Source of the DNA: an uncultured delta proteobacterium
Lineage (GTDB): Bacteria > Desulfobacterota > Binatia > UBA9968
Direction of reading: 5' to 3'
Length of the DNA: 64,000 nucleotides
NCBI GenBank assembly: GCA_963728565.1
Contig: CAVSLC010000015.1
Coordinates: forward strand, 8,546-72,545
Shown piece by piece: positions 7,151-30,457 of the stretch. A program made the position numbers and the translations under genes. Each line of letters starts with the position of its first letter. Positions within the stretch are counted from its first letter, which is position 1. The notes under the pieces were generated by a model. The model did not search any database. It saw only the letters and a program-made list of their open reading frames with translations, and was not told the DNA's origin.

Positions 7151-7530
7151 TAACGGGGACAGACTACTTTTTTATCTACTTCCTCATTTCGCTTAGAGCG
7201 GGTCGGCCCCGTAGAGCCATCGTACTCTCTGATTGCATGAATCGGCTCAGAGACTAATGTGCGAAGCTTCAATCACAAAGTGAAAGTGATTCGGCATTAG
7301 AGAAAGCAAGCATCTTAACTGGGTGCCGCGTTTTTGCTAGCGCGAGCATGGAAAGAAAGGCTTGGTAATCTTGAGCGTGATGGAAGATAGTTGCGCGACC
7401 GTTCCCTCGGTTAATTACATGATAAACAAAACCAGCCTGTTGCGCATGCGGGATTGTCGGCATGGCAGGCCTTTATTATATAGGCGAACGTGATCACAAC
7501 GATGAAAATAGCCTGTCACCTTTAATCCCC
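7151..7530 (-). mobile_element. RAYT family A, internally deleted element with terminal inverted repeats
   Basis: YHVINRGNGR N-terminus joined to the 3' end; ends taacggggacagactacttt / aaatagcctgtcacctttaa. Confidence 0.85.
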
Positions 7531-7710
7531 GTCACTCTCGGTTTTAGTGCCATGGTGCCGCGCGATCTCATTCACCAGCTATAATGGAATATGAAAGACC
7601 GCTTGACTCCCTCCTTCTTCAGCAAGCGACACGGAAGGTTCTCGCCAGTCGTACTCTGAGCAATTTCAACTGCTCCCAGATAACCTAAGCTCTAGATATC
7701 TGCCCGGCGA

Positions 7711-8763
7711 TTAATCGCCAAGCAGAATCGCCTTCATTTTGGCCACCAGAGCCGGCTCCAGATGGAAAAGGCTGTCGATGGCTCTTCCCGCATCCTCACC
7801 GGTGGTAGGATCTATCTCGAGATTGGATTTTTTTGCCTCAGCCAAAAAGTCTGCGTCTTTCATGGTCTCCATGAAAGATCTTTGCAGTACTCTTACCCGA
7901 TCTTTCGGCGTGCCTGGCGGGAGTGCATACAAGCGCGTTATCGGCGCTGTTGTCTGAACGCTGGCTGTGATTAATTTGCGTGCTTCGTCACTTTGAACCA
8001 GGTTGAGCGCGAGAGGAACTTTTGGCAGATCAGGAAGAGGCTCGTTAGTCAGTTGAACGACGATGTTCACGGTGCCTGCCTGTAAGCCGGCCCGCCAGGT
8101 AGGCTTGATCGACTCCCACTGCCAGCAACCGCCGGCCAATTCTCCACTCTCGGCGGCAAGCCGGATGGGTGCGGTGCCCGAATATCCCGAAACCAGTTGA
8201 ATAGGCAGGCCAACAACGTGCTTAAGAACCAACGCGGTATTGTCGGTTATGATCAATCTTCCAGTGCCGCCTAATTTAACCGGAGTCTTGGAGGCTTTCC
8301 ACGCTTCTATCGTAGTGATTCCACTTGCCTTGGTCAGCGCACAAACGATGTTGTCCTTGACCGGAACACCGAGCCACTCGAATTTCTGAAAGTCAAAGTC
8401 AACGCCAGGCTGGTTCAACAACCGTCCTAAGGCGATGTCGGCGATGAAGGTCCCAATCGTCAGCCCATCCGGCTTGGCTTGAAAAACATTCTTGGCCGCC
8501 ACCAGAGTCGCGGCGCCGGGCTGGTTTTCAATGATGATTTGCGGGTTGCCGGGAATATATTTGCCCCAGTGACGCGCGATTGCCCGCGCGTATACATCAA
8601 AACCGCCGCCGGGTGCAGTTCCTACGACTACTCTTACAATCTTGCCTTGATAGAAAGGACTCTGTTCCGCTGCCAGTCCAAGTTCAGGTAACGCCAAGCC
8701 GCTAACAGCTGCGACAAGGAAAATAAACAGCATCGTATAACGGACGTGACATTCAAGAGTCAT
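7711..8763 (-). CDS. Bug/TctC tripartite tricarboxylate transporter binding protein
   Basis: APGGGFDVYAR, ENQPGA, KPDGLTIG, AAESGEL. Confidence 0.88.
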   Translation of the reverse strand: MTLECHVRYTMLFIFLVAAVSGLALPELGLAAEQSPFYQGKIVRVVVGTAPGGGFDVYARAIARHWGKYIPGNPQIIIENQPGAATLVAAKNVFQAKPDGLTIGTFIADIALGRLLNQPGVDFDFQKFEWLGVPVKDNIVCALTKASGITTIEAWKASKTPVKLGGTGRLIITDNTALVLKHVVGLPIQLVSGYSGTAPIRLAAESGELAGGCWQWESIKPTWRAGLQAGTVNIVVQLTNEPLPDLPKVPLALNLVQSDEARKLITASVQTTAPITRLYALPPGTPKDRVRVLQRSFMETMKDADFLAEAKKSNLEIDPTTGEDAGRAIDSLFHLEPALVAKMKAILLGD

Positions 8764-8945
8764 CAGCTGACCTCCGCGGCAGTGCCCCATCAAACGGATT
8801 GTAAAAACTCTCCGGGCAGTGTGGGAAGAGATCTCAAAGGGAACCACGGGAATCGCTCCCTGAGAGCTTCGGCCCAGACGCAAACGGTTGATCCTGTCTC
8901 TTGATTCTGAACTGTTGGCGCGCTTAATACGTCGCAGCGAGTCGT

Positions 8946-9284
8946 TCAGACAGGCCATCCATGTTCAGAGATATCCACCCGATTGCCTTCGGGGTCCTGT
9001 ATCCAGCTCTCCGCAATGGCCCCGTAGACGTTTGAGTTCGCGGTGGTACCGACAAACTCTTCGACGGCTTTGACGCTGGTCACTACAAAACCAAAGTGAT
9101 GGATGCCCCAGGGAAGGTTCGGCGCATTGATCAGGGCAACGTCAACGAAGCCATCGGATAGATAAATCGTGCCATTCGGACCACGTTCCTTTTCTTCCAG
9201 CTTGAACACATCCTTGTAGTACTCGGCAGCTTTTTCGCGATCTTCAACGTTGATAGCGATATGGCGAATTCGTGGTCTATCCAT
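8946..9284 (-). CDS. VOC/glyoxalase family protein
   Basis: RHIAINV, HHFGFVV, DPEGNRVDI. Confidence 0.88.
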   Translation of the reverse strand: MDRPRIRHIAINVEDREKAAEYYKDVFKLEEKERGPNGTIYLSDGFVDVALINAPNLPWGIHHFGFVVTSVKAVEEFVGTTANSNVYGAIAESWIQDPEGNRVDISEHGWPV

Positions 9285-9401
9285 AATCAATCTCCTTCGA
9301 CAGCTTGCAACAAATAAGCGCAGACTGACATGTCTTTGGTGTTTCCTTCATCGAAGCGATTTGAACGGCCTGAACTTTTTGAACGAAAGTATTTTCCGCC
9401 C

Positions 9402-10091
9402 TTACCTCAAGCTATAACCCATCTCGTAATGGATGTAGATGCCGTCAAAAAAGAACCATCGCATCCGTGCGCTTTCGCGCGCGTAAGTGACCGCCATCTC
9501 CTGCAACTCGGGTGTAATCGCGTACTCGTCCAGTATGTCGAAACCTTTTCCACCGTGCTCTGTATCGGCTACCGCATGCAGCCAAAAGTGTTCTATGTCC
9601 TCCTCCTTCATCCGATAGATCTCGCGCAAGGCGGGAAGCACTTTGCTATAAAGAGGCGGCGATTGGGATTCGGTGCCAACGTTGGTCGCCGCTACGCTGG
9701 CAATGAAGGACTCCTCTTTGCACACGCGGTTGAAAAACGTCACCCATGCTTCCGTGGTCGGAAGGCCTCGGCTTCGCTTGACCTGCTCGACGTCGGCTCC
9801 ATTAGCGGCCGCAAATCTCAGAATGATATCGAGATGAGGACGCGCCGGATCGCTTTCCTCAAGATAATTTTCCAACAACAACCGTTGCACAGCCAACGGT
9901 GTATTCGCGGCTTTGAAGAGCTCGCCGCGGTAAATGTTGCTGATCCAGTGATATTGCTCGATGCCCCATCCCATTAATGCGTTGCGGCTGAGCTTTCCCG
10001 CAGCCCACTTTTCAGTCAACGGATGATTAACGCAATGGCGCTCCATCACGGCTGCCTCGAGTCGTTCGCGCAGAGCACTTTTGGTTGTCAT
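9402..10091 (-). CDS. Heme-oxygenase-like diiron oxidase (TenA/PqqC/CADD superfamily)
   Basis: EE-x6-H, E(SQ), H-x3-D-x2-H ligand set. Confidence 0.85.
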   Translation of the reverse strand: MTTKSALRERLEAAVMERHCVNHPLTEKWAAGKLSRNALMGWGIEQYHWISNIYRGELFKAANTPLAVQRLLLENYLEESDPARPHLDIILRFAAANGADVEQVKRSRGLPTTEAWVTFFNRVCKEESFIASVAATNVGTESQSPPLYSKVLPALREIYRMKEEDIEHFWLHAVADTEHGGKGFDILDEYAITPELQEMAVTYARESARMRWFFFDGIYIHYEMGYSLR

Positions 10092-10139
10092 GTTTAAGTC
10101 TCCATGTTTTAGATTTGCGACTAATTCAAAGTCGGATGA

Positions 10140-11165
10140 TCACTTGAGAACGTCTTTAAGCTTGGCCACGAGAGCCGGCTCCAGCTTAAAGATTCCGTCG
10201 ACTAATTTCTCCAGCTCCTCTCCCGATACTGGATCGATTTCCAAGGTCGATTTTTTTGCTTCCGCGATAAAACTCGGGTCATTCAGGGTTTCGAGAAACG
10301 CCTTACGCAAAAGCTGGACTCGTTCTTTGGGAGTTGCCGGCGGCAAAAGGTAGGGGCGTGTCATGGCGGCAGGATCATGGAGTCCCGCGCGAATCAGCTG
10401 GCGCGCCTCCTCGCTCTTGGCTTCGTCTATGGCGTTTGGAACCTGAGCCAGCTCCGGATGGCGTTTGGGATTCGTTTGGATGACTATCACCACCTCGCCT
10501 GCATCGAGGCCTTTGCGCCACGTAGTCTTGATCGATTCCCACTGAAAGCAAGCGCCCGCCAGCTCTCCGCTTTCCGCGGCAAGTCGCATATCGGCGGTGC
10601 CTTTGTAGCCCATTACGAGTTGAATGGGCAGGCTCAAAGCTTCCTTCAAAATTTTGGCATTGGTCGTGGTGGTATCTCCCGGGCCGCCCCCGCCCAATTT
10701 GACCGGTGTCTTGGAGGCCCTCCACTGCTCGAGACTGGTAATGCCACTCGCTTTGGTCAACGCACAGGCGCCGTTGTCCTTAACCGGAACTCCAATCCAT
10801 TCGAAGCGACGGGCGTCAAACTCGATACCGGGACTGCCAAGAACCTGATTAAGAATTTGGTTGCCGTGAATGTTCCCGATTGTGAGCCCGTCGGGTTTGG
10901 CAACTTTGAAGAGATGATTGGCGGCAACCAGGCTTGCCGCTCCCGTCATGTTCTCAACGACGACGCTCGGATTACCCGGGATGTGTTTACTCAGGTGACG
11001 CGCAATCGCGCGCGAATAGATATCGAAACCACCTCCCGCGGCAAAGCCGACGATTAATCGGACAGTTTTGTTCTTAAAGAAGTCGTCGCTTGCCGAGATC
11101 ACAGTACCCGGCATCAGAGTAAGGCTAAAAAGGAACGAACAAAGAACGGCAAAATTTCTCTTCAC
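10140..11165 (-). CDS. Bug/TctC binding protein
   Basis: AAGGGFDIYSR, ENMTGA, KPDGLTIG; close paralog of 7711-8763. Confidence 0.88.
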   Translation of the reverse strand: MKRNFAVLCSFLFSLTLMPGTVISASDDFFKNKTVRLIVGFAAGGGFDIYSRAIARHLSKHIPGNPSVVVENMTGAASLVAANHLFKVAKPDGLTIGNIHGNQILNQVLGSPGIEFDARRFEWIGVPVKDNGACALTKASGITSLEQWRASKTPVKLGGGGPGDTTTTNAKILKEALSLPIQLVMGYKGTADMRLAAESGELAGACFQWESIKTTWRKGLDAGEVVIVIQTNPKRHPELAQVPNAIDEAKSEEARQLIRAGLHDPAAMTRPYLLPPATPKERVQLLRKAFLETLNDPSFIAEAKKSTLEIDPVSGEELEKLVDGIFKLEPALVAKLKDVLK

Positions 11166-11496
11166 CGCGATTTCGCTTTCTTGAGCAGAGGCATTCGCAG
11201 TTGTACGTCCACTCGGTTGCGATAGGACTCCACTTGATGACAACACTTCGTCCGACACAAGCTAATCAAGACGCCTTTCGCTGTCAATCAAAAATTGTCA
11301 GCTGTGTTGTAGCAAAGCGATTATGTCAGATGACCGGCTAACAATCTGAGATCAAGAAAAAACCGCTAACGATAATCGAGAGAGTCTATCCAAGAGAGAC
11401 TCTGCTGCGCCATTGAACGTGGCGGGGTTTGTTCTCTAAGATATTTTCGAGTGAACCGTTAGGGCAACCTCTTGGGGTCTACCATTGGAATTGCGA

Positions 11497-11630
11497 GCCG
11501 CGGCAAGGGCTCTGGCATGGTGGAATCGGGAGTAAGCCTGATGCGAATGGAAATTGCTTCGCCTCACGAAATGTCAGATGAGCTGGTCTTACGAAACAGC
11601 CAATCCTGCTCGGGCCACAGACAGCATTAG
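11497..11630 (+). pseudogene. Degenerate copy of the rlpA 3' end
   Basis: Aligns with ~4224-4355 (gccgcggcaag...ggaatcgggagtaa...gcgaatggaa...cattag). Confidence 0.7.
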
Positions 11631-12058
11631 AACCCCCCCACACACACACATTTTCAGCCCTTGCGGTCGTTCAGACGTCGCTAAGCCCAAGTTACTGTAG
11701 AGGCTTCATAACCGCGTAGGTTTTTGTCTCTCAGTAACTAATGCCTATTTTGAAATTTTTTATGAGGAATCGAGATGTTAGACAGTCTGAGGCACATGAC
11801 GGCCCGGGAGTTTACCACGTCAGCTATGGACTCAGCGAAGACCTGTCGCTATCAGTTCCTTGTGGGTTTTTCATCTTGAAAATGCGTCGTTTTTACAAAA
11901 GTTGCCCACCAGCGAAAAGACTCTCCGTCTTCTATCCATGTGCCAACGAGAAGGGCTTCTTGATTGGAGATCATAATTTTACAGTTGGCCGTCCCTTGTA
12001 TGTGCGTATTGCCGTTAATGGCTGTGAACCCACCGCGGAACTCATTCCCTGCGGGATG

Positions 12059-12800
12059 TAAAGGGGACACGCTACTTCTTATCTACTTCCTCATTTTGCT
12101 GAAACCGGGTCGGCCCCATGAACGCATCGTACTCTCAGGTCCAATAGACCTGCAATCGACGTCTGCCAGTCTGGTTCTCCAAAAGGTCTTTAACGATTCA
12201 CTGACTAACGAATTGCAGCCAATTGCCGCGCTGATAGCGGTTCGTCCAAATGCGCCAGCCGGTCTGTCTCGACTTCGAAAGGACAGGGATCGGCCAGCTC
12301 GTTCCGACAGCAACTTGACTTACGGCCGATCATCTATCGACGCTGCCAAGCCTGATCTGACTGGATTCTGTAACACGTAGCGCACGACCATTAGCAAATG
12401 CTCATCGCGCTGCACTGGAAAACTTTTAAACCGGCCCTGCCAAACATGCCCGCTGCCGCCGTAATGCTTGTGATAACGCCGTACGTGACTGGTCAAGATC
12501 CCTTGCATGAATCGGCTCAGAGACTGGTGATGCGAAGCTCAATCAGAAAGTGAAAGTGATTCGGAATCAGAGAGAAAGCAAACAACTTAACTGGGTGCCG
12601 CGCTTTTGCTAGCGCGAGGATGCAAAGAAAGACTTGGTGATCTTGAGCTTGATGAAAGATAGTTACGCGACCGTTCCCTCGGTTGATCACATGATAAATA
12701 TAACCAGCCTGTTGCGCACGCGAGCTTCTTGGCATGGCAGGGCTTTATCATTTATGCGAACGTGATCACAAACGATGAAAGTCGCTTGTCCCTTAATCCC
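12059..12800 (-). mobile_element. RAYT family A element, near full length, transposase pseudogene (12083-12735)
   Basis: YHVINRGNGR, PNHFHF (HUH), GHVWQGRFKSFPV, RYVLQNPVR; frameshifts and stops; inverted repeats at both ends. Confidence 0.9.
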
Positions 12801-12835
12801 GTCAATCTCCCGATCTCCCTCGGCTGTCCTTAGAC

Positions 12836-13049: not shown

Positions 13050-14111
13050 TTATCGCATTGGCAGCGGCGTCGCTCCGGAAAAGGTCTTGAACAGGTCGAT
13101 CAATTCAGGGTCGCGAGGGGTATCTTGAATGGCCTTGGTCAAATCCTCCGGCATCAACGGACTTGCCTCTTCGCCAACCACCTTGCGGTATTCGCGATGA
13201 AAATCCGGATCTGTAAAAGTCTTGCGCATCGCCTCCTGAAGATCAGCAACACGATCTTTGGGTGTCCCGGGCGACAGAACGTAAGGTGAGCCGGTGAGCC
13301 TGAATGTTCGCGAGAGAGCGAGCAGCCTGCGTTCTCGTTCGGACTTAGCGAAGGTTTCGATCTCAGGAAGGTGGCCAAAGCGGGGGTGCTTGAGATCTTT
13401 GGGAATTGCATAGATCGCATGGAAATCCATTAGACCTTTTTCCACCCAATCAGGATTGCGATGCCAAACTGAGGTTGCGGTGTTCGCCCTGGCGTCGATC
13501 TCCCCACTCAGCAGTGCGACGTCCAAGTCCGGCGCCCCGTACCCCGGGATAAACTTCGGGTCCTTCAAAGCGAGAAAGTACGCAAAGAATCGTGCCGCTA
13601 TGTAGGCGCTATGTCCGACGGGCCGGGTTCCCACTCTGACTCCGGGAGTCGCTCTGAGTTTTTCCAAACTGTTCAAGCCCACGTCTTTTCGGGTATAGAA
13701 CACTAGATGGCTGGAGCTTTCCGGCGAGCCGAGATAGAGGAATTTATCAACATCGTACATCACTCCGGTCTCACGTAAGAGACTTAGTCCAATGACGCTG
13801 CTGCTGAACGCGCCGATCGTGAGCCCGTCAGGGCGGGCGTTGCGAAATAGGTGATTGCCCACTTGTCGACCACCGCCGCCGTCCATGTACTCGATGAGGA
13901 TTGTGGGATTTCCTGCAATGTATTTGCGCAGAAAAGGAACCGTAGCCTTGACCCGGTTGTCGCCAATTCCTCCGGGGGCGGTCGCGGCAATGATCTTTAT
14001 GGTCTTGCCTTGGTAATAGGGCGCTTGCGCAAAGGCGTACTCGGGTGAAAGACCGGTTAGCACCACCAGCACGCCAAAGACTGCTAGTCCAACGAGGGCC
14101 TTGGTAATCAT
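13050..14111 (-). CDS. Bug/TctC binding protein (divergent)
   Basis: Signal peptide, APGG, RPDGLTIG, LSPGTPKDRV. Confidence 0.82.
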   Translation of the reverse strand: MITKALVGLAVFGVLVVLTGLSPEYAFAQAPYYQGKTIKIIAATAPGGIGDNRVKATVPFLRKYIAGNPTILIEYMDGGGGRQVGNHLFRNARPDGLTIGAFSSSVIGLSLLRETGVMYDVDKFLYLGSPESSSHLVFYTRKDVGLNSLEKLRATPGVRVGTRPVGHSAYIAARFFAYFLALKDPKFIPGYGAPDLDVALLSGEIDARANTATSVWHRNPDWVEKGLMDFHAIYAIPKDLKHPRFGHLPEIETFAKSERERRLLALSRTFRLTGSPYVLSPGTPKDRVADLQEAMRKTFTDPDFHREYRKVVGEEASPLMPEDLTKAIQDTPRDPELIDLFKTFSGATPLPMR

Positions 14112-14540: not shown

Positions 14541-14680
14541 GCCGCGCCCGTTCTCCCGGTTGATCGAATGATAAAACAAAACCTGCCTCTTGCGCGCGCG
14601 GGATTCTCGGCATGGCAGGGCTTTATCATATAGGCGAACGGGATCACAACGATGAAAGTAGCCTGTCCCCTTTAATCCCC
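14541..14680 (-). mobile_element. RAYT family A 5'-end fragment
   Basis: Shares cggcatggcagggctttatcatataggcgaacg...aagtagcctgtcccctttaatcccc with the other copies. Confidence 0.8.
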
Positions 14681-14937
14681 TTCGAAAGTAAATGATCATG
14701 GCTCAACGACGCGGTGCCGTTCTCCGGCTCATTCGAAGTTAAACTCATTTTCAGAACACGCAGTCGATTAAAGCATCTAGGTACTGTGGCTCAACTAGCT
14801 AACTCCATACTTGACTTAAATGAAAAGCAGATGTTGCGAGCTGCACCTCGCAAATTGGGCGGTGACGGTCTCTAATGGACCAACATATTAACAGGCTGAC
14901 TCTGTGAGGAGTCGCCTAAGCCTAAAGGAGGTGCAGC

Positions 14938-16022
14938 ATGAAAGAGTATATAGGAGTGGACCTGGGGAAGCACAAGGCCGTGGTGGTAAAGAAAGATCGA
15001 CAGGGAAAGACAACCAGCAAGGTTACTGTACCTGTGACTCAAGCAGCATTGGAAAGTTATTTTTCGAAGCAGGACCGTCGAAGCCAGGTGGTGGTGGAGG
15101 CCACGGGGAACTGGATGTATCTCTACGAGACCATCGAGCGCTACACACCGGAGGTCGTCTTGGCACACCCACTTAAGACCCGGGCGATTGCCGAGGCACG
15201 GATTAAGACCGACACCATTGATGCGACGACCTTAGCGGAACTGCTACGTCTAGATGGCATCCCGAAAGCGTATATACCACCTCGTGAGGTTCGTGACATT
15301 CGAGAGTTGTTGCGTTACCGGGCCTCGCTGGTATCGATACGAGTCGGTATCAAGAACAAGATTCATGCGGTGCTGACCAAGAACGGCATCGATTGCACGT
15401 TCAGTGATATTTTGGGGAAATCCTCCCGGCAGTGGCTGAAGAGTCTAGCCGTGCGTGCTTGCTATCGGCTAGAGATTGATGGGTATCTACGGATCGCGGA
15501 GGCGTTGGCGATTTCGATTGGAGAGATCACAAAAACGATAAAGGCCGAGGTAGCTGAAAACCCACAGGCTCAACTATTGATGGGTATTCCGGGTATCAGC
15601 TACTACTCGGCTCTGTTAATCCTCAGTGAGATTGGTGAGGTAGACCGTTTTCCCAATGCCAAGCGATTGTGTTCGTATGCCGGCTTGGTTCCCAGTATCT
15701 ATAGCTCGGGAAGCAAGAGCTACAGCGGATCACCAAACAGGGTTCACGGTGGCTGCGATGGATTTTGGTAGAGATCAGCATCCATGCCGCCAACGGGGAT
15801 TCGAACTTTCAGAAAGTGTACCGCAGAGTGAGTCGACGACGCGGTCCTAGCACGGCGAGAGTGGCGGTAGCGCGAAAGATCCTCACTGTCATTTACGCCA
15901 TGCTAAAGCGAAGTGAGTCGTTTAACCGTCACAGACCTCGGCAACGACTTATGGCTGTACCTGGGCGAAAAAAAGTGACCGACGTCTCTGGTCATCCTCC
16001 TGGGGTCATGGTCCCGGCCTAA
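14938..16022 (+). pseudogene. IS110 transposase/recombinase with a frameshift near 15728
   Basis: DEDD motifs GVDLG, VEATG, KTDTIDA; SSG; ITKQGSRWLRWILVE restored in the next frame. Confidence 0.88.
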
Positions 16023-16200
16023 ACCGGAGATCCGAAGATTTGATTAGGAGACCAGAGTCGAATTCAATAATGTGCCGAAGAGCACGGATGAGTGACTGAC
16101 CGATTGGTCGACCGAGACCGAACAGAACTCTGGTCGCAAACAACGGCAGTGTGGGTGATTAGACTAACCCCACGCCTCCCGTGAAGAGGTGCATCTAAAC
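15984..16200 (+). ncRNA. Putative bridge/seek RNA of IS110 element 1
   Basis: Stem ctctggt/accagag plus ctcct/aggag enclosing ggggtca (reverse complement of target tgacccc); atgagtgact (16088) equals the donor junction. Confidence 0.65.
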
Positions 16201-21157: not shown

Positions 21158-21180
21158 CAGTTACGCTGCGGCAATAATAC

Positions 21181-21413
21181 ATCAGAGAGAAAGCAAACAT
21201 CTTAACTGGGTACCGCGCTTTGCTAGCGCACGGATGGAAAGAAAGGCTTGGTAATCTTGAGCTTCAAAAGGTCGTTCTGCGACCGTTCCTCGGTTGATCA
21301 CATGATAAACAAAACCAGCCTGTTGCGCATGCGGGATTCTCGGCAGGGCAGGGCTTTATCAAATAGACGCACGTGATCACAAACGAGAAAAGTAGCCTGT
21401 CCCCTTTAATCCC
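21181..21413 (-). mobile_element. RAYT family A 5'-end fragment
   Basis: Closely matches the other copies; ends aaaagtagcctgtcccctttaatccc. Confidence 0.85.
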
Positions 21414-21483
21414 GGTGGAAGTGATGGAGCCGGACGCGCGGCTTTGTTTTCCTTTGGACGGGCCATCGTTCATCTTAACGGGC

Positions 21484-22494
21484 TTATTCCCGTTTCTCCC
21501 ACCGTGCGATCAAGCCCAGCAAATCGCAGACGCGATTGGAGTATCCCCATTCATTGTCGTACCAACTGAGACACTTTAGATATCTACCGCCCGTAACGCT
21601 GGTAAATGCCGGGTCGAAAATAGAGGAGTGCGAATTCCCTATGACGTCGGATGATACGACGGGTGTTTCCATGAGTTGCAAAATGCCTTTCATCCGTTTC
21701 GAGTCCGCCGCGGATTTTATCGCGCCATGAACGTCCTCGGCACTAATACGTTTCTGGAGCTCGACGAACAAGTCGACCACGGAGCCATCGGGTACCGGTA
21801 CCCGCGCGGCGATTCCGTCCAGCCGTCCTTTCAATTCAGGCAAGACCTCGCCCACCGCCTTGGCCGCTCCGGTGGATGTCGGTATGATATTTTCCGCCGC
21901 GGCGCGGCTCCGCCGCCAATCCGAGTGCGGCACGTCGGCGAGGCGCTGATCGTTGGTGTAGGCGTGCACGGTATTGATGATTCCTTCCACGATACCGAAA
22001 GAATCGTGGAGCACCTTGGCCAGCGGCGCAAGACAATTCGTGGTGCAGCTCGCGTTAGAAATCATCCTGTGCTCGGGCTTGAGCCCGTCATCGTTGACGC
22101 CGATTACGACGGTATAATCGATCTCATCCTTCGCCGGAACGGTCAGCACCACTCGCTTGGCTCCCGCATCCAGATGCTTGGCAAGTTGTTCCCTGCTAGT
22201 GAATATTCCCGTCGATTCGATGACGACATCGATGTCGATCTCGCGCCAGGGCAGTTTGAGCGGGTCCTTTTCACGAAGCATGCGCGTCCGACCGTGCGAT
22301 GTCACCAGTTCATTGCCTTCGAGTCGCAGGGCGCCCTCAAAACGACCCATTACGGTGTCATAGTTGAGCAAGTATCGCAGCGCGTCATGGTCGAAGAGGT
22401 CATTGATCGCAACCAGTTCGGCGTCCGCCCGCTTATCGAGAATGCGGAACACAGAACGGCCGATTCGACCGAATCCATTAATGGCAACTCTCAT
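21484..22494 (-). CDS. gap: Type I glyceraldehyde-3-phosphate dehydrogenase
   Basis: INGFGRIGR, SNASCTTNCLAP, WYDNEWGYSNR. Confidence 0.95.
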   Translation of the reverse strand: MRVAINGFGRIGRSVFRILDKRADAELVAINDLFDHDALRYLLNYDTVMGRFEGALRLEGNELVTSHGRTRMLREKDPLKLPWREIDIDVVIESTGIFTSREQLAKHLDAGAKRVVLTVPAKDEIDYTVVIGVNDDGLKPEHRMISNASCTTNCLAPLAKVLHDSFGIVEGIINTVHAYTNDQRLADVPHSDWRRSRAAAENIIPTSTGAAKAVGEVLPELKGRLDGIAARVPVPDGSVVDLFVELQKRISAEDVHGAIKSAADSKRMKGILQLMETPVVSSDVIGNSHSSIFDPAFTSVTGGRYLKCLSWYDNEWGYSNRVCDLLGLIARWEKRE

Positions 22495-23510
22495 CGCCCA
22501 CCTCCGATCGTATCGAGGGTGCTGTAGTGCCGGACCACTTCGAGCACGCGGCACGCATGCCCCAGGCTCTCATACCAGGCCAGCACTTTGATTATTCTTT
22601 TTCCTGCTTTAATGGTGGCGAGCGAATCGAAGAGCAAGGATTGCCGGCAACCGATGACATCCGAAGAAACAATCGGATCATCGGTCACGCCGATCAACGT
22701 CGGATGATCGGCAGCGGCGGCGCGCATAGCTCCGCTCACTTGCTCGGCCGTGACGGTGCCAGCCTGCATGACGCAGTTAACATCGAGCAATGATCCGCGT
22801 TGGACCGGCACGTTAAGGGCGTAACCGCTCAACTTTCCCTCAAACTTGGGCAGAACAAGCTCCACCCATCGCGCGGACTCATTGTTGTTGGGGATGATAT
22901 TCTCCGCCGCGGACCGGCTGCGCCGGAAATCTTTGTGTGCATAATTCTGCAGCGACTGATCGCTACTATAGGCGTGGACCGTCGTCATCGATGCGCAGTC
23001 GACTCCTAAGGCCTGATCCAGAGATTGCAATAAAAGCGCAAATGCATTGGTGGTCGCGGAACCGGCCGAAATCATTTTGTCCGCGGCGGCGGCGCTCCCT
23101 TCATTGATTCCCGGTACTACGATACGGTCGATTGATTCCGCCGGCAGCGACGCCAGAATGACCCGCGGGGCACCGGCGCGCAGATGGGCCTCCATGTCCC
23201 GACGACTCTTATATCTGCCTGTGGCATCGACGACGCAGTGGACATCCAGAACATCCCATGGAACCTCCTCCGGCCGGACAAGCTGGAGCATTCTTGTGCG
23301 GAACTTCTCGTTGATCAGGTAATTGTCCTGGAGCTCGCAGGGCGCCTCGTCCACGCCGTCGCTATTGAGCAGATACTGAATGATTTCAGGTTTGCCGATA
23401 TCGGCCACCGCGACGATTTCGATATCATCTATTTCCCGCGCAAGGTGATACAGATGCCGCCCAATTTGGCCCAATCCCATAATGCCGATTCGGATTTTAC
23501 CATTACGCAT
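22491..23510 (-). CDS. GAPDH-like protein lacking the catalytic Cys
   Basis: GLGQIGR; SAGSATTNA in place of SNASCTTNC; VHAY; WYE. Confidence 0.88.
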   Translation of the reverse strand: MRNGKIRIGIMGLGQIGRHLYHLAREIDDIEIVAVADIGKPEIIQYLLNSDGVDEAPCELQDNYLINEKFRTRMLQLVRPEEVPWDVLDVHCVVDATGRYKSRRDMEAHLRAGAPRVILASLPAESIDRIVVPGINEGSAAAADKMISAGSATTNAFALLLQSLDQALGVDCASMTTVHAYSSDQSLQNYAHKDFRRSRSAAENIIPNNNESARWVELVLPKFEGKLSGYALNVPVQRGSLLDVNCVMQAGTVTAEQVSGAMRAAAADHPTLIGVTDDPIVSSDVIGCRQSLLFDSLATIKAGKRIIKVLAWYESLGHACRVLEVVRHYSTLDTIGGGR

Positions 23511-23632
23511 TTGGCCGCCTCCGTTTCCGCAAAATTAAGCGCTCGAAGTTGGCGTTATCCATAGCCGAGAACTCTAACAACCGATCAACCAAAAGAAAAT
23601 GCTTTTCTGAGGAAATCGTCAAACTGGAGGTG

Positions 23633-23950
23633 TAAAGGGGAGAGGCTACTTTTTATCTACTTCCTCATTTCGCTGAGACTGGTGATGCGAAGCTTCAATC
23701 AGAAAGTGCAAGTGATTCGGCATCAGAGCGAAAGCAAACATCTTAACTGGGTGCCGCGCTTTGCTAGCGCGAGGATGGAAAGAAAGACTTGGTAATCTTG
23801 AGCTTTATCAGAGATAGTTGCACGACCGTTACCTCGATTGATCACATGATAAATGAAACCAGCCTGTTGCGCACGTCGGCATGGCAGGGCTTTCATACAG
23901 GCGAACGTGATCACAGACGATGAAAGTAGCCTATCCCCTTTAATCCCCCC
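23633..23950 (-). mobile_element. RAYT family A miniature element (both ends, internal deletion)
   Basis: taaaggggagaggctactttt ... aagtagcctatcccctttaa. Confidence 0.85.
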
Positions 23951-24170
23951 GATTTGAACATGGTTCGCGCCCGAGTGGTTACGCATCCCTGTGATTGGAC
24001 ACACAGCGGCGCATCGCGAAGTCATTGAAAGTGGCGGTACATATGAGCTCCGGGAGCAGACTCAAAGTTATGGGTCCAATTTCGGCGGTTAAATGAGGTG
24101 CTAAGCTTGGATATACTAGCTTCTGGAACGAAGATTTAAACCTAGTGCAACTTAGGCTTGGTCCGACCCC
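23951..24170 (+). mobile_element. RAYT family C deleted fragment with an intact cttggtccgacccc end
   Basis: Matches 26399-26451 joined to ~26687-26850. Confidence 0.75.
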
Positions 24171-24289
24171 GGACTTCTAGTTTCACCCGGTAGGGTCGCA
24201 GGCTACTGCAGTAGAGCCGGCGGAGTATATGGGCGCGGCAAAATCCTTTTGAGCTGCCAAGAGCCCCGTACGGCAAACTTCAGGGTGAA

Positions 24290-25759
24290 TTACCGTATGA
24301 ACCCTAACAGTCTCCAATAAGGAACACTGACGCCTAACGCTAAAAAGTTCGCAGCGCATCGTACCACCATGAGTTTCCGAGCTTGCGCATGTGAAAACGC
24401 ATTGCCGTCTGTACTGTAAAAGGCGATTTGATAAGCATCGTTCTGAGATAGAAGAAACCAGCTCTCATTTGCCATAAGGATGGTGATTAGAAGAATTCCG
24501 GGATGCACCCCCAGCTCCTGCCCCCAAGAACTTAGCCCGAGAGTGGATAAGAGAATAACGGTTGGTGTTTTACCGAGAAAGAAACGAATGAAGTACACGG
24601 CTACTGAAACAACCGTCAGAAAAGCCAAAGGACCCAACGCCACATAAGAAAAGTATGGACCGATAGATGCCATGAGCCACTGATCGATTTTTAGATGACG
24701 CATGATGCCGTCGAAACTCGAAATCACACCTAAGAAAAAGAGGAAACCCCAATCTATTCTGGCTTTGAAATCGTCTTTTTCGAGTACTCTGGTTAGAAGG
24801 AAAACTGAGAGCGCGCCCAACGCAACCCATGTCTCGCTCAATCCATGCATTGGCTTTGATAACCACCCGACAAGCGCGAACATCAGTATTCCGAGACTAA
24901 GCCGTTCATTACGGGTTAATGATTTCGGCCTATCGAGAGGATGATCTGGTTGTTTCACTTGGCTAGACCGTGAAATGACTTCGGTCGGGAACAGGTAGTG
25001 TACTCCGAGGAGTAGGCATCCCAGTGTAACGACTCCCGCCGGAAGCGCGGCCACAGCCCAAGTCGTCCAGCCAAAATCCAATTTGGCTGCTTGCGGAAGT
25101 AAGTTCCATCCGATCAAGCAGGAGGTCGCTCCTGTAAGGAACATAAATGCACATTGGGTAAAACCGACATACGCTGAGAGGCCTATTCCCGCCGAGCCGT
25201 TCGAGCGCCTTTCAAATCCCATTGTTTCCGAGATCGTTCTACTGAGAGGTGCTGCTATCGCCATACGAGCCTTACTCGTTGGCATCACCGGGGTAACTAT
25301 GAGACCAGATATGGTGAGTAACCAGGTGTACATCCGGTAATTAGGCGAGATCCGGCGCAGAGTTTCTAAAGCTATACTATGAAACAGCCCAGATTTGTTG
25401 ACGGCAACAGCGATCCCAAGAACTGCAACAACAAAGCACCATGACGTCTTGGAGAACCCGGCCAGCGCTACTTCTGAGGGCACGGCATCCGAAACTACCC
25501 AAAAAAGCAACATCAATATGCCGACAAGATACTCGTCGTATACGTTGAACATGAGAAGCAGCGTTCCGGCGGTAAGACTACCGAGAAAATAGAGTCCGCT
25601 CGCATCCAGGAGGGCGGGGGTCGGAAGCTGCATGACTAGCCAACCCATCGTCAAAGCGATCATCAGGCCAATAAGTTTTCCATCAAATATCTGCGCCGCG
25701 TTCCGTGCTGACCACAACGAGTCCGTTATCGGCTGGAGAGTCTGGCTGCGATTCATCAA
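24290..25759 (-). CDS. SLC13/DASS family anion transporter
   Basis: Many hydrophobic segments; LAGFS, PTSKAR, FLTG, IDWGFL, PYWRLLGFI. Confidence 0.85.
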   Translation of the reverse strand: MMNRSQTLQPITDSLWSARNAAQIFDGKLIGLMIALTMGWLVMQLPTPALLDASGLYFLGSLTAGTLLLMFNVYDEYLVGILMLLFWVVSDAVPSEVALAGFSKTSWCFVVAVLGIAVAVNKSGLFHSIALETLRRISPNYRMYTWLLTISGLIVTPVMPTSKARMAIAAPLSRTISETMGFERRSNGSAGIGLSAYVGFTQCAFMFLTGATSCLIGWNLLPQAAKLDFGWTTWAVAALPAGVVTLGCLLLGVHYLFPTEVISRSSQVKQPDHPLDRPKSLTRNERLSLGILMFALVGWLSKPMHGLSETWVALGALSVFLLTRVLEKDDFKARIDWGFLFFLGVISSFDGIMRHLKIDQWLMASIGPYFSYVALGPLAFLTVVSVAVYFIRFFLGKTPTVILLSTLGLSSWGQELGVHPGILLITILMANESWFLLSQNDAYQIAFYSTDGNAFSHAQARKLMVVRCAANFLALGVSVPYWRLLGFIR

Positions 25760-26314
25760 CGAACCACGTCAAATGCTAGGCCGCACTGCGAAGGTGTTTC
25801 TTCGGCATTTGACAACTGTTCAAAGAGAATTTTAGTCATCGCTTCAATAACAATTTGTCCGCCCATTATATCTTTCCGGCTTTCTAAGCTTGAGTAGCCA
25901 TTCATGTTAACATCTCTTCAGTGACAAAACCCTTTCCTTCACAACGAGCTACGTCTTCCGGTTCCCCCGGATGACACCCGCGCTACGTAGAAACGTTCTC
26001 CTATAGCTGCATCTTGTTTCGGATCAGGCGGGAACTGCCAACCAAAACAGATAAGGCAAAGCCGATGCCGTTTACTGATCGGAGTTTTAACCGTTTGTCG
26101 GTAAACCGTGGCACTGCTGGGGTGACGATAAATGCCAAAAGTGACTGTCGCTGCACAAAAGCGTCGTCTGATTTTCTACTCGGCACGTTGGGAAGCTGAG
26201 AAACCGCACTGACTCAAGAGTAACATCGATGGAGGGAGGTGGGCCGGTTAGCGCTTATGGCGGATATTTCCAACATAAATACCAAACTGCATCAACCCAG
26301 CAATCCTGAGATGT

Positions 26315-26850
26315 TTCGTCACGGCGCATTTTGGAGACCGCTATCATGCCACGGCCATCGAGATTAACGAGCAACTTCAACATTGTCTCGTTTACATCGA
26401 TTTGAATATAGTTCGCGCCGGAGTCGTTACGCATCCCTGTAATTGGACACACGCGGGTTATCGAGAGATGCAGAAACCCCCCGAAGCGCTACGGGATTAT
26501 CGATCTACCGGAGTTAAGTTCGCTATGTGGATTCGGCGACGTTGCAACATTTCAGCAAGCACATCGTCGGTGGGTAGATGATTCACTCGCGCGCGAGGCG
26601 ATGGCAAGAGAAGGTGCGTGGTCAGAAGCGATTGCGGTCGGCAATTTGAATTTTGTTGATAAGGTGCAGAACGAACTCGGATACAAAGCGGCACACCGCG
26701 AAGTCATTGAAAGTGGCGGTACATATGAGCTCCGGGAGCAGACTGAAAGTTATGGGTCCAATTTTAGCGGTCAAAATGAGGTGCTAAGCTCGGAGAACAC
26801 TAGATTTTGGAACGAAAGTTCCGAAGTTACTGCAACTTAGCTTGGTCCGA
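26315..26850 (+). pseudogene. RAYT family C transposase, 3' half
   Basis: AFW..RYHATAIE, CLVYIDLNIVRAGVVTHP..W, WSEAIAVG. Confidence 0.8.
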
Positions 26851-26928
26851 TAATCATCTAGCAGGCTCCTTCGATAGGCCGTAACGTGCGGGGACATCAA
26901 CCCACACCCGCTCAAAGGAGGAAGCGAG

Positions 26929-27945
26929 ATGAAATTGTACGGAGCTATTGATTTGCATTCCAACAACAACGTGACGGTGGTGATCAACGAGCAAGATCAA
27001 GTGTTGTATCAGAAGCGCTTGCCCAACGATCTTTCGTTGATCGCGCAGCAACTCTCGAGCTATCGCAGATCGCTACAGGGAATCGTGGTGGAGTCTACCT
27101 ATAACTGGTACTGGCTGGTCGATGGACTGATGGAGAAGGGCCATCAAGTTCATCTGGCCAACACCGCGGCGATCCAGCAATACAATGGGCTGAAGTACAC
27201 CGATGACCACAGCGACGCGCGGTGGCTGGCCCATCTGCTGCGGCTAGGGGTCTTACCCGAGGGCTACATTTATCCCAAGGAAGAGCGAGCGGTGCGTGAT
27301 TTGTTGCGCAAGCGCGGCCAGCTCGTGCATCAGAGGACGGCTAATCTTCTCAGTATCCAGAGTCTAATCAGCCGGACCACGGGAAACTCGATCGGCACCC
27401 AGTACATCAAAGCGCTCAATATCGAACATCTGGATGGAGTCTTACCTAACCCGGATCACATCCTTGCACTCAAAGCCAATCTGGCAGTCATGAAAAGCGC
27501 TGATGCCCAGATCGAGATCTTGGAAAAAGCCGTCCAGGACCGAGTCAAGCTACGACCTCAGTTCGGATTTCTAAAGACGGTACCCGGAATCGGGCCGATC
27601 CTGGCGCTGACGATCATGCTCGAGACCGGAGAGATCGAGAGATTTGCCTGTGTCGGCAATTACGCTTCGTACTGTCGCTGTGTGGGGAGCCAGAAGATCA
27701 GCAACGGCAAACGTAAAGGAATCGGCAATACCAAAAACGGCAACAAGTATTTGGCCTGGGCGTTTGTAGAGGCTGCCAATTTTGCGATCCGGTTTAATTC
27801 GAAGATCAAAGGCTTCTATCAGAAAAAGAAATCTAAGAGCAATGGGATTGTGGCAATCAAAGCGGTGGCCCACAAGCTCTGCCGGGCTTGCTACTACATT
27901 ATCAAAGATCAGGTGGCTTTTGATCTCACCAAAGCGTTTGCTTAG
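26929..27945 (+). CDS. IS110 transposase/recombinase, intact
   Basis: AIDLH, VVEST, TDDHSDA, VPGIG, SNG, NKYLAWAFVEAA. Confidence 0.93.
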   Translation: MKLYGAIDLHSNNNVTVVINEQDQVLYQKRLPNDLSLIAQQLSSYRRSLQGIVVESTYNWYWLVDGLMEKGHQVHLANTAAIQQYNGLKYTDDHSDARWLAHLLRLGVLPEGYIYPKEERAVRDLLRKRGQLVHQRTANLLSIQSLISRTTGNSIGTQYIKALNIEHLDGVLPNPDHILALKANLAVMKSADAQIEILEKAVQDRVKLRPQFGFLKTVPGIGPILALTIMLETGEIERFACVGNYASYCRCVGSQKISNGKRKGIGNTKNGNKYLAWAFVEAANFAIRFNSKIKGFYQKKKSKSNGIVAIKAVAHKLCRACYYIIKDQVAFDLTKAFA

Positions 27946-27959
27946 CAGATCGATTTAAC

Positions 27960-28320
27960 GGTTGGGATGGGATAGTGAGCCTTGGCTGGGGTTGGCTTAG
28001 AACCACATGGTCCGATTTGGCGGCTCTCCCGTCCCTGATCATATGGACAACTCGGCGGTGCTGTGATTCGATGGACGCCCACGCCGTGAGCCACAATAGG
28101 GTTGGCCCCCAACAGGGAGAGCCACAGGATCTGTGATCCTATAACCTTGGACGCGGCGTGGTACCGATAGTTTTCTGGGGCAATTAAGATTGCCAGGGGC
28201 GCGAGATCGCTGCCCGAGAGGACAGCTCTCAAAGCCTTGAACCTGATGGGTGACTGGTGCGTACCTACGGTCCGACACCAACTGATTGAAAACAGGGGCG
28301 CGTCAATCAGGGATCACATA
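27960..28320 (+). ncRNA. Putative bridge/seek RNA of IS110 element 2
   Basis: Stem gggatggga/tcccgtccc plus gagcc/ggctc enclosing ggggttgg and tggtccga, both matching the target; further hairpins downstream. Confidence 0.65.
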
Positions 28321-28582
28321 GTCGGCGAGGGTTCAAAAAGGGAATAAGAAAAATTCTCACAGGAACGTCTGTGCCTCTTGACCTGCCTGCTAATGGGCGA
28401 CCCAACGCTTTGTACGCAAAACTGACTTTCACCATGGGCTGCTAAACGTGGAGAGCCTCGAACAAACGCTTGGGGGAGACTCAGAGAGAAGCCGCCCATT
28501 GAAAAGTAGGCCGTTTGGCTTTCCCCATCAGAGTGGCGTGGGATCTGATGGGGAAAGCCGCGACCAGAACACTCGACAATCG

Positions 28583-29914
28583 CTAAAACCGAGCATTGGC
28601 CCAGTTGGCGACATAGTTCCACGTATTGAGCAGCACGTTAACATAAGGGCCCGTACCGTGGTAAGCAGCGCATTCATTGCAGTTCCCGCCGCCGTGGGTC
28701 GCCCCCTCCACGACGATAAACTCCTTATTGATGGCGGCCGCATTCTCGAAGATCTCCTCGCCATCACGAATGAAATAGTGGCCTTGGTGCGCCAAAACCA
28801 GGGTGGGCACCGAGATCACCCGAACCGCGCAGACCGTAGAGTTATTGGTCGAGCACCAATCCAGGTCATCAAGCGCATGGTGAGAGCGGATTGCATTGGC
28901 ACTTAAGAATGATGTGATTGTGAATTCCTCGGGGCTGTTTTCATCGTCGTCCTTGATATCTGGAGTAGGAACTCTGACGGTACGAATGATCTGCGGGGCC
29001 GAGAGCTCCCCGGTCGCGTCCTGTAGAAGTTTCGTTGGATTCAGCGTGCAGCAGTGAACCTGGGTGGTAAGTTGCACCAAACGCGCGTTGACGCGGTTAA
29101 GAACAAATGCGTCATCAGCCGGGTCATGCAACCCAAGCTCCATTTTGCGCCTGATTGTTAGAGCATCCCTAATCAGATTGTTCATACGTCTTGACTGCGC
29201 AAGAGAGTATTTGTCGACAAAATGATCCGAGTAGGTTGAATCGCCATCCGGTTCGTGGTCTGGCGGGAGGCCGTTGTAGCCGTTTGCCGGGTCGAAAGGG
29301 TCGAGCGTTTTATTGATCGCAGGACCGAATGGTTGGTTTTCATTGACGACAGATGCGTTAACCGAACGCAGCCCATTGACCCCGACTCCCGGATGCGCGT
29401 CAGTAAAAACGATTCCGTTAGCTCTATCCGCAGCGTTGAAATCTGTGTCTGTAAAAGGGCACTCAGTAATTTTCTTAGGCCCCTGGCAGTAAGATGGGCC
29501 ATTTTCCGCTAACGCCTGGTAGTAGGACGTGCTCGGACCACCCCCACTGCGCCCAACTAGAATGACGCTTGTGTGTCCTTTGCTTCTTAGGAATCGCACT
29601 CCATTCCGTATATCGAGAGCGATTAGCTCGAAGTTGACGGCGGCTTCGCTATTGCCGAACCTAGTTCTGATACCAAGAGTGCCAAAGCCTCGATTTGCCA
29701 ACTCCACAGATGACTGATGGTTTCGATAGTCATTGGTGCGATGGATAGAAAGGAACGCGATGCGAGGCACTGGCCCCACCGCTGGAACCCGATAACGGCC
29801 AAGCGCGCCGTCACCCAAATTAACTTCTTCGATAGTTACCTGGGCAGAAGCGTTGGTCATTCCGAGAACTATGCCCAAACCAACGATGAATGACAAAATC
29901 TTTAATCTTACCAT
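28583..29914 (-). CDS. Secreted alpha/beta hydrolase fold protein
   Basis: Signal peptide; GRSGGG nucleophile elbow; EGATH. Confidence 0.75.
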   Translation of the reverse strand: MVRLKILSFIVGLGIVLGMTNASAQVTIEEVNLGDGALGRYRVPAVGPVPRIAFLSIHRTNDYRNHQSSVELANRGFGTLGIRTRFGNSEAAVNFELIALDIRNGVRFLRSKGHTSVILVGRSGGGPSTSYYQALAENGPSYCQGPKKITECPFTDTDFNAADRANGIVFTDAHPGVGVNGLRSVNASVVNENQPFGPAINKTLDPFDPANGYNGLPPDHEPDGDSTYSDHFVDKYSLAQSRRMNNLIRDALTIRRKMELGLHDPADDAFVLNRVNARLVQLTTQVHCCTLNPTKLLQDATGELSAPQIIRTVRVPTPDIKDDDENSPEEFTITSFLSANAIRSHHALDDLDWCSTNNSTVCAVRVISVPTLVLAHQGHYFIRDGEEIFENAAAINKEFIVVEGATHGGGNCNECAAYHGTGPYVNVLLNTWNYVANWANARF

Positions 29915-30184
29915 AGAAACCTCCCTTGACTCTGTATGCCACTCTTAATACGCCACCACCGTTACCGTCAAATTCTTTTTATGAAAGCAGCCATTTGATT
30001 TTTTAATGCCTGCACGGGGGAATCAAAAGCCTGAGATTTCCGCAAATCGAACCAACATCAATGGCGAGGAAAAGCACTCTTAAGCCGCAGTTTGTTCAAC
30101 ACCAAACCATTACGCTAGAGATTTCAACATGAACTTTTCGCAACCTTAAAACTGGTCGCCGACACTTACACGGCTCAAGAGCCA

Positions 30185-30457
30185 TTGCATGAATCGGCTC
30201 AGAGACTGGTGATGCGAAGCTTCAATTACAAAGTGAAAGTGATTCGGCATCAGAGCGAAGCAAACCTTAACTGGGTGCCGCGCTTTGCTAGCGCGAGGAT
30301 GGAAAGAAAGGCTTGGTAATCTTGAGCTTTATGAAAGATAGTTGCGCCGACCGACCGTGATTGATCACATGATAAACAAAACCAGCCTGTTGCGCGCGCG
30401 GATTCTCGGCATGACAGGGGCTTTATCATATAGGCGAACGGGATCACAAACGATGAA
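30185..30457 (-). mobile_element. RAYT family A 5' fragment
   Basis: ATIFHKAQDYQAFLSILALAK; closely matches the other copies. Confidence 0.85.

Follow-up and report, generated by a model that had tools for sequence, protein, structure and literature searches.

TIRYT genes encode Y1/HUH enzymes and lie between terminal inverted repeats (TIRs) that share the motif GGGGWSAS, the gene and its ends together forming a TIRtron (Di Nocera et al. 2013, PMC3733652; Quentin et al. 2018, PMC6006769). According to the parts of these papers on which we draw, genomes carry one to three such genes (mean 1.9) together with TIR families of moderate size. Most TIRYTs are placed in subclass 2.1 (Bertels RAYT Group 1), with the motifs NH[YF]H, W[EQ] and Y..xNP and a median length of 238 aa, and subclass 2.1 has a C-terminal helix-turn-helix (HTH)-like domain of the Bac_DnaA_C, HTH_23 or HTH_28 type. 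IS200 elements are described in the same source as having subterminal hairpins, no TIRs, a TnpA of ~150 aa and a Y...Q motif (PMC6006769). Here, we analyze a 64-kb stretch of DNA from an uncultured Binatia bacterium (hereafter the window, which is the part of this genome covered), in which a sequence-only reading had seen RAYT mini-elements punctuating an array of cargo genes. These repeats are copies of a TIRtron, i.e., of one TIRYT (Y1/HUH) gene of 217 aa between inverted ends. The RAYT-type Y1/HUH gene of that reading is thus retained, with the refinement that it is flanked by TIRs and not by REP sequences; the kind is already known, and this element joins it as a new member that occurs in several locally clustered copies.

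The window element resembles described TIRtrons in its Y1/HUH gene of the ~220-240-aa class with NH[YF]H, WQ and Y..xNP motifs, in a C-terminal extension past the catalytic core, and in ends that are TIRs rather than REP hairpins and contain GGGGWSAS (GGGGACAG in the window). Unlike the TIRtrons in those accounts, it is present in at least six to seven gene-bearing copies within 23 kb, every one of them dead and in the same orientation, with no solo TIRs. REPtrons and their RAYT genes (TnpA-REP, structure 4ER8) have a homologous catalytic core and likewise place the gene between inverted copies of a short repeat, but the window repeat forms no palindromic hairpin, is not dispersed (0 solo copies in 64 kb) and accompanies a multi-copy gene. 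Shared with the IS200/IS605 insertion sequences (ISs) are the Y1/HUH chemistry, the multi-copy state, an IS-like decay and the orientation bias expected of single-strand transposition (PMC6006769). The best formal analogue for the growth of such an array is provided by IS26 arrays, pseudo-compound transposons and translocatable units as presented in PMC4196232, although IS26 uses a DDE instead of a Y1/HUH enzyme, its targeted conservative integration is not seen here, and the window copies are old and dead. As in integrons and clusters of attC sites lacking integrases (CALINs), unrelated cargo follows in a one-directional array with a recurring separator sequence; the separators in the window, however, are gene remnants of 140-770 bp, and the modules are multi-gene and of mixed orientation.

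The element and the decay of its copies

The element, which we call family A, is ~760-790 bp long and is represented by six clear copies and a marginal one between 7.1 and 30.5 kb (Table 1). The repeat search (find_repeats) returned direct-repeat families D1, D2, D3, D5, D8, D11 and D14 at the places where the sequence-only reading had put six similar copies and a diverged one. A blastn search with the longest copy (B) as the query found copies 83-88% identical to B, and a DNA profile built from five full-length copies (nhmmer) recovered the same six copies plus the marginal remnant G. All three approaches agree on the six copies, with the strand and ~23-kb spread first noted; the seventh copy is marginal. 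Seven of seven copies are on the minus strand inside 23 kb and 0 lie in the remaining 41 kb; past position 30459, the profile gives a single noise match (E = 6.5, 42372-42394), which bears out the earlier remark that the catabolic half is free of copies. Over their common 5' part, the window copies are 85-90% identical in pairwise comparisons (72-78% for the short remnant C), and their 10-15% divergence has a star-like pattern.

In copy B, the open reading frame (ORF) starts at 12735, reads MPRSSRAQQAGYIYHVINRGNG...NHFHFLIE and is frameshifted near codon 66. It continues as ...VWQGRFKSFPVQRDEHLLMVVRYVLQNPV, with an in-frame stop past DDRP and the terminus ...GRPGFSKMRK just before the right repeat. 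The HuH motif NHFH (NHFHFL), WQ and the Tyr motif YVLQNP (RYVLQNPV) are readable, and the two halves of this frame score 24.5 and 21.1 bits against Pfam Y1_Tnp and 31.2 and 38.2 bits against NCBIfam REP_Tyr_transpos (cutoff 80). When the longest ORF of a related copy served as a protein query, 5028 homologues were obtained at E <= 1e-5, and they include intact 217-aa proteins (93-97% identity) with the name 'transposase [Candidatus Binatia bacterium]'. One such intact relative of 217 aa (P0004) represents a cluster of 122 members, with two different NCBI accessions found. It scores 60.3 bits against Y1_Tnp and 83 bits against REP_Tyr_transpos (equivalog cutoff 80), matches the E. coli TnpA-REP structure 4ER8 at E = 1e-6, and extends ~75 residues past the catalytic core, with no Pfam HTH match at E <= 1. 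The combination of GGGGACAG in the ends with NHFH, WQ and YVLQNP in the gene therefore fits the TIRYT/TIRtron type. We rejected an IS200/IS605 identity on the presence of TIRs, the absence of hairpins, the length of 217 aa, the Y...NP motif and a score of only 20.5 bits for P0004 against NCBIfam transpos_IS200 (cutoff 55). A REPtron identity was likewise discarded, the ends not being palindromic hairpins and 0 solo repeats accompanying six to seven gene copies in 64 kb; lacking both hairpins and dispersed repeats, the window element is not a REP-flanked RAYT.

The ends of the element are a 20-nt inverted core, TAAAGGGGACAGGCTACTTT, which carries GGGGACAG. The left core precedes the ATG by ~50 nt, and the right core follows the stop codon directly. 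Outward of the core, conservation continues imperfectly for ~11 nt on both sides (copy E: 81% complementarity over 32 nt), and the conserved bases just outside the core resemble an imperfect TIR extension. The 21-mer proposed in the sequence-only reading has seven matches at <=3 mismatches in the window against 0.00 expected (100 shuffles), 7/7 at copy ends, and the pattern AAAGGGGWSAS has four matches against 0.16 expected, again all at copies. Both ends are kept in A, B and E, in line with the number of three given in that reading; A and E have different internal deletions and B is full length, with a degenerate left end whose 2-nt gap escapes a search at 3 mismatches. Copy F has no end repeat. 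The core also stands at both ends of four copies in a related metagenome-assembled genome (MAG) and of the copies in two further contigs, L003 and L005, all introduced below. Scans with the 21-mer and AAAGGGGWSAS found 0 solo or doublet end repeats in 64 kb, and no end hairpins of the IS200 or REP type were detected, six end segments folding no better than shuffles (z -0.14 to +1.27).

All window copies are pseudogenes or deletion remnants in neutral decay. The 64 kb contain no intact Y1 gene, since tblastn with P0004 gives only frameshifted, stopped or truncated matches, such as a frameshifted N-terminal stretch of 78 aa in copy A and an 18-aa match, IINRGNGRAAVFHKSEHY, at 20407-20460 in copy G; intact genes, of 217 aa, exist in related Binatia contigs. 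Across 14 copy sequences from four genomes, the majority consensus reads as one ORF of 217 codons with no interruption, so the copies must stem from a gene that was active. The divergence from this consensus is 5.4-7.8% for copies A, B, D, E and F (6.0% for D); the 28.6% measured for copy C is in part due to misalignment past its first 137 bp. Of the 132 substitutions in the window copies, with C counted in, codon positions 1/2/3 received 54/38/40 (chi-square p = 0.18). Subtracting C leaves 45/25/30, with a position-1 excess driven by B and no third-position excess. Synonymous changes make up 34/132 (26%) against 23% expected at random. Contig L005 has the deletion junction of copy E together with its flank in identical form, and the deletion of copy A is a different one, which marks the small two-ended copies as inherited in-situ deletions and not as an amplified mini family. 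A 1-nt deletion common to D, E and F was considered as proof that dead copies had been copied and was rejected, as the L005 orthologue of E does not have it.

Homology blocks in related genomes and the surrounding island

A 24-nt pattern that matches five of the six window copies was scanned against 185,579 species-representative genomes, a collection outside which the window's own genome lies; the pattern misses copies diverged at any of its 21 fixed bases. It matched in three genomes only, namely MAG MFD05567.bin.2.276, L003 (a 3.1-kb contig of 3063 bp) and L005 (a 2.7-kb contig labelled Candidatus Binatia). In the MAG, three matches lie within 10 kb of a 918-kb contig; they are its only pattern matches and all belong to an array. 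The 29.7-kb stretch around them (L001) holds five co-oriented copies in 15 kb, four of full length and one 3' part (M2), each with its own frameshifts or stops. Clustering and shared orientation thus recur in the one related long contig in which they could be followed, and the array idea is not refuted there.

The window and MAG loci are partly orthologous. A 162/195-aa protein (93% aa identity), Hsp20 (95%), a VOC protein (95%) and a remnant of a second Y1 family correspond between them, and the GAPDH pair is 98% identical in amino acids and 98.0% in nucleotides (98.0-98.1% nt against the three other genomes). The remaining genes are paralogues or unrelated, the module 1 solute-binding proteins (SBPs) being 53-59% paralogues. 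Copies bracket the GAPDH pair in three of the four genomes (window, MAG and L003), and its outer neighbours differ between window and MAG. In L005, an E-type mini lies on one side of the GAPDH pair and lapA directly on the other, without copy D. Copy D is the positional orthologue of the full-length MAG copy M1 at the same GAPDH-side junction and, in the window, is joined at an element-internal point to the 3' flank of lapA. The MAG copies M1, M3 and M4 (L001 9353-10112, 15639-16385 and 19011-19755) are 98-99% alike and only 1.2-2.2% from the consensus.

Among the eight ends of the homology blocks of VOC, Hsp20, GAPDH and family-B remnant 1, four (20366, 21180, 23678 and 23950) fall in or <=60 bp from a family-A copy. 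The Hsp20 block, 92.5% identical between window and MAG, ends at 20366 by copy G, and neither end of the VOC block is near a window copy. The breaks at D and E are element-internal and not at the tips. In one other place, window 28254-28403 is homologous to DNA that starts exactly at the left TIR tip of M4. Blocks thus often end in or beside copies, and module boundaries do not refute the array idea here either; several breaks lie inside the copies. Two candidate empty sites were rejected. In L005, copy D is absent, but ~70 bp of flank are also missing or diverged; for M4, the window has homology to the left flank only (28254-28403), the sequence across from it being unrelated and bordering an IS110 gene. 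Contig L003 holds a single element and the GAPDH pair and reads as a circle, because its first and last 99 nt (1-99 and 2965-3063, inside the element) overlap exactly. A short-read assembler yields such an overlap for any unit between near-identical direct repeats, and it is thus no evidence for a circle.

Two side observations concern these comparisons. The VOC gene (114 aa; window 8946-9295, L001 14982-15331) is 93% identical in nucleotides, and homology stops at the ORF borders; it is a single-gene mosaic with no repeat at its window edges, among neighbours that are 53-59% paralogues or unrelated. A fragment like the 3' part of an RlpA-like (DPBB_1) gene at 3684-4355 occurs at window 4136-4396 and 11493-11729 and at L001 957-1222 and 12757-12995; it adjoins element copies in both genomes (B in the window, the partial M2 in the MAG), on opposite sides of a neighbouring Bug-like gene.

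The cargo between the copies forms separate modules (Table 1). The module list of the sequence-only reading is largely upheld by Pfam matches (TctC-like, VOC, Haem_oxygenas_2, glycosyltransferases of families GT2 and GT4, Hsp20, LapA, two GAPDH and DASS); its 'hydrolase', the 443-aa ORF at 28583-29914, has no Pfam or NCBIfam match. Added to it are two IS110-family genes, the family-B remnants, a DUF2283 gene and a zeta-toxin gene.

Table 1. Family-A copies and cargo modules in the 64-kb window
Feature	Positions	Strand	Description
Copy A	7138-7539	minus	Internally deleted TIRtron remnant, both ends kept (right TIR 7151-7170, left TIR 7505-7524); blastn span 7147-7539 (5' 307 bp and 3' 82 bp, interior gone); 5' 297 bp and 3' 86 bp match the element profile
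Copy B	12040-12810	minus	Full-length pseudogene; right TIR 12059-12078, degenerate left TIR ~12787-12804
Copy C	14543-14685	minus	5' 137-bp remnant (blastn 14543-14679); left TIR 14655-14674
Copy G	20420-20515	minus	Marginal, highly decayed remnant (nhmmer E = 0.029)
Copy D	21180-21414	minus	5' 234-bp remnant (blastn 21181-21414); left TIR 21389-21408
Copy E	23626-23950	minus	Internally deleted, both ends kept (right TIR 23633-23652, left TIR 23923-23942); blastn span 23631-23947 (5' 281 bp and 3' 52 bp)
Copy F	30170-30459	minus	5' coding remnant without TIR (blastn 30175-30457)
Module 1	7711-11258	minus	Bug-like SBP, VOC, Haem_oxygenas_2-family gene, Bug-like SBP (Pfam; TctC-like)
Module 2	13050-14111	minus	Distant Bug-like SBP; no Pfam match; 30-32% identical to other Bug-like proteins
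Module 3	14938-21157	plus	IS110-family transposase (14938-15771), GT2, GT4, Hsp20, LapA (Pfam)
Module 4	21484-23510	minus	Two divergent GAPDH genes (Pfam)
Module 5a	23950-26850	plus	DASS transporter (24290-25759, minus) between two direct remnants of the second Y1 family
Module 5b	26929-29914		IS110-family transposase (26929-27945, plus) and 443-aa ORF (28583-29914, minus)

The second Y1 family (family B; direct-repeat families D6 and D13) is represented by plus-strand remnants at 23950-24166 and 26320-26850, 86-90% alike, which are 5'-truncated, with the whole N-terminal half gone. This family has a YIDLN-type Tyr motif and survives as the C-terminal half only. In the MAG stretch fetched, it leaves a single remnant (3712-4302), next to a 1006-aa gene and matching NCBIfam REP_Tyr_transpos positions 93-146. 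Such a one-ended remnant could probably not transpose, and the bracket of two remnants around the DASS gene therefore probably arose by recombination.

Over 4-34 kb, the GC content is 0.50-0.53, compared with 0.55-0.57 on both sides, and this low-GC stretch also holds the IS110 genes, the second Y1 family, the DUF2283 gene and the zeta toxin. A tRNA scan and an Rfam scan of the window, aimed at an island integration site or a known RNA, found no tRNA and no Rfam family. The two IS110 transposases (window 14690-15771 and 26848-28253) are 28% identical, and each adjoins the end of a Y1-element remnant: the second begins where family-B homology stops (26848), and the first lies ~260 bp from the left TIR of copy C. 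This placement may reflect end-targeted insertion, as the part of PMC8450116 that we draw on describes for ISPpu9 in REPs. Beside copy A, the minus strand of 6100-7100 carries a DUF2283 ORF (6253-6543, Pfam) and an upstream ORF that, judged by eye, looks like a toxin-antitoxin partner. At the far end of the window, a LysR-type regulator at 62694-63709 (plus strand) is split into an HTH_1 ORF (62694-63056) and a LysR_substrate ORF (63092-63709), and may be a frameshifted gene.

Formation of the array

The analysis shows which element this is, that its copies are dead and have decayed neutrally, that they are clustered and co-oriented, and that breakpoints lie at them. We favor, at a probability of roughly 0.55, a history in which an old, strand-specific burst brought the element into an accessory island of low GC content, after which the copies decayed and underwent homologous recombination with one another. 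An autonomous TIRtron would have been active in an ancestor of this Binatia lineage and would have inserted several times, in one orientation, into a tolerant low-GC island. After loss of the active enzyme in the lineage of the window, neutral drift, slippage-type internal deletions and one-sided truncations would have eroded the copies. The co-oriented remnants could then have served as portable homology, recombination or deletion at or within them removing, duplicating and re-ordering groups of genes, and related genomes would come to differ by blocks that break at copies.

IS608 and ISDra2 target the lagging-strand template, according to the text on them in PMC6006769, and by analogy, strand-specific insertion into single-stranded DNA may explain the co-orientation. 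The GC skew is negative across most of the window, so the copies are read with the G-rich strand, and their orientation is that expected if insertion uses the lagging-strand template. Clustering would result from local or tolerated insertion, and the differences between modules presumably from RecA-type recombination. The element-internal breaks, the minis formed in situ and the family-B bracket fit ordinary homologous recombination at least as well as capture by a Y1 enzyme.

Several observations weigh against this history. The clustering is very tight for independent insertions, and no target-site duplication or target motif was seen. The GC skew, from which alone the direction of replication is read, is weak and also follows gene direction. 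As for the enzyme itself, the portions of PMC3733652 and PMC6006769 dealing with TIRYTs report no transposition mechanism. M1 and copy D occupy the same junction despite their unequal divergence from the consensus, for which unequal rates, gene conversion from an active master or re-insertion are all possible. The block boundary at the TIR tip of M4 is the outcome expected of end-specific recombination. Finally, Pseudomonas offers an array of unrelated cargo interspersed with a distant TIRtron whose TIRs share the 12-nt core, and arrays may therefore be a property of the element class and not an accident of one island.

A doubtful alternative, though the one that survives best, is an IS26-like translocatable unit, in which recombination between two co-oriented copies frees a circle of one copy plus cargo; through homologous recombination or the TIRYT, the circle then enters any resident copy of the same cell or of a different one. 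As each integration makes direct repeats, arrays would grow locally and co-oriented, and a single process would explain co-orientation and clustering together, with the IS26 arrays as a precedent (PMC4196232, as far as drawn on here). The GAPDH pair would be one such unit, bracketed in three of four genomes (one-sided in L005) while its outer neighbours change between window and MAG; the DASS gene, between direct repeats of a truncated remnant that is probably unable to transpose, would be another. The only direct hint is L003, which contains exactly one element and the GAPDH pair, but its terminal overlap is, as noted above, the usual product of short-read assembly where direct repeats flank a unit. 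The star-like 10-15% divergence of the window copies moreover fits one burst and leaves little recent homology, and no module was seen in a truly unrelated context.

We consider improbable the model of the sequence-only reading, in which an intact TIRYT elsewhere in the genome would act in trans on the TIRs as recombination sites, with integron-like capture, excision and re-ordering of cargo. Related Binatia contigs do contain intact genes (the P0004 cluster), co-orientation is required by a single-strand Y1 reaction, one block boundary coincides exactly with a TIR tip, and the TIR-core motifs between toxin/immunity modules of a Pseudomonas aeruginosa record (21 against 0.5 expected) often stand just upstream of the next ORF. 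The window, however, has neither an intact enzyme nor solo TIRs in its 64 kb, and no TIR-precise cassette exchange was seen. Both ends are kept in only 3/7 copies, the breakpoints at D and E are element-internal, the minis are in-situ deletions, and the modules are made of genes in differing orientation. The ~6% neutral divergence of the copies further means that these sites are not maintained by selection. No IntI-type integrase (Phage_integrase-type match) was found among 89 ORFs (41 + 14 + 34), ORFs of <110 aa being scanned in part, and no attC-like short hairpin repeat recurs among the 25 longest of 45 inverted pairs at 5-33 kb. The 5'-truncated family-B remnants show the same direct-repeat bracket around one cargo gene. 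An integron-like array built by a Y1 enzyme in trans is thus not borne out at this locus.

Segmental duplication, by which an element and a Bug-type operon would have been duplicated in tandem before the cargo diverged, is very improbable. It would account for the paralogous Bug-like SBP and VOC genes in several modules of both genomes, but those cargo paralogues are 27-59% identical in amino acids whereas the element copies are 85-90% identical in DNA, so cargo and element cannot be of the same age; moreover, the GAPDH, glycosyltransferase and DASS modules are mutually unrelated, and Bug-like genes also lie outside the array. A mis-join of repeat-containing contigs, suggested by the two related contigs that end inside the element, as is typical of repeat-induced breaks, has almost no likelihood left, given the same GAPDH-copy junctions in four independent assemblies and copies whose 10-15% divergence and unique deletions show that they are not collapsed or chimeric repeats.

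A Pseudomonas parallel and its meaning

A plasmid DNA search with copy B gave no match, and tblastn of P0004 against plasmid records found distant relatives only, at <=37% identity. One of them, in a 24-kb P. aeruginosa record (NZ_CP116719.1, 1-24299), lies in an array of its own. A DUF637 (CdiA-type) gene opens this record; behind it come toxin modules (deaminase, EndoU, glutamine-deamidase and endonuclease), accompanied by small partner genes. It has three co-oriented TIRtron genes (14239, 16538 and 22170), with TIRs of 32-38 nt beginning ATAAAGGGGACAG, and the 12-nt TIR core TAAAGGGGACAG is identical to that of the window element, although the proteins are only 34% identical. The core motif AAAGGGGACAG occurs 21 times in 24 kb against 0.5 expected, mostly as right-end remnants or small two-ended minis between modules. 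Host and cargo differ from those of the window, and right ends are mostly kept in the Pseudomonas record whereas left ends are kept here. A relative on an Iodobacter plasmid, with one gene listed in a 17.7-kb stretch (the record has two matching places), shows no AAAGGGGWSAS and no array. Ruhe et al. 2016 (PMC4927057) note transposase and integrase genes within the orphan toxin/immunity arrays that follow cdi loci, and the part on which we draw does not name this family; we found no literature linking RAYT/TIRYT to cdi orphan arrays or to Binatia.

This parallel raises the tentative and rather unlikely idea that TIRtrons are array builders, whose ends, or whose bodies as portable homology, recruit and shuffle accessory modules into one-directional arrays. 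We give it what weight it has mainly because of the Pseudomonas array. If it were true, the Binatia island and the P. aeruginosa toxin/immunity array would have arisen in one and the same way, through a cassette system that a Y1/HUH enzyme runs or its element nucleates, with a mechanism different from that of integrons and from that of IS26.

To conclude, TIRYT/TIRtron elements are common, as judged by the thousands of homologues from one search, yet barely studied. The locus described here adds a 'fossil series' of one family, dated and neutral, together with a related genome whose copies are still nearly intact and evidence that copies mark the breakpoints of an accessory island. Should the array-forming tendency not be general, the locus would be an ordinary IS graveyard in a plasticity zone. 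Should it be general, TIRtrons would represent a new route of accessory-gene assembly, including that of interbacterial toxin cassettes.

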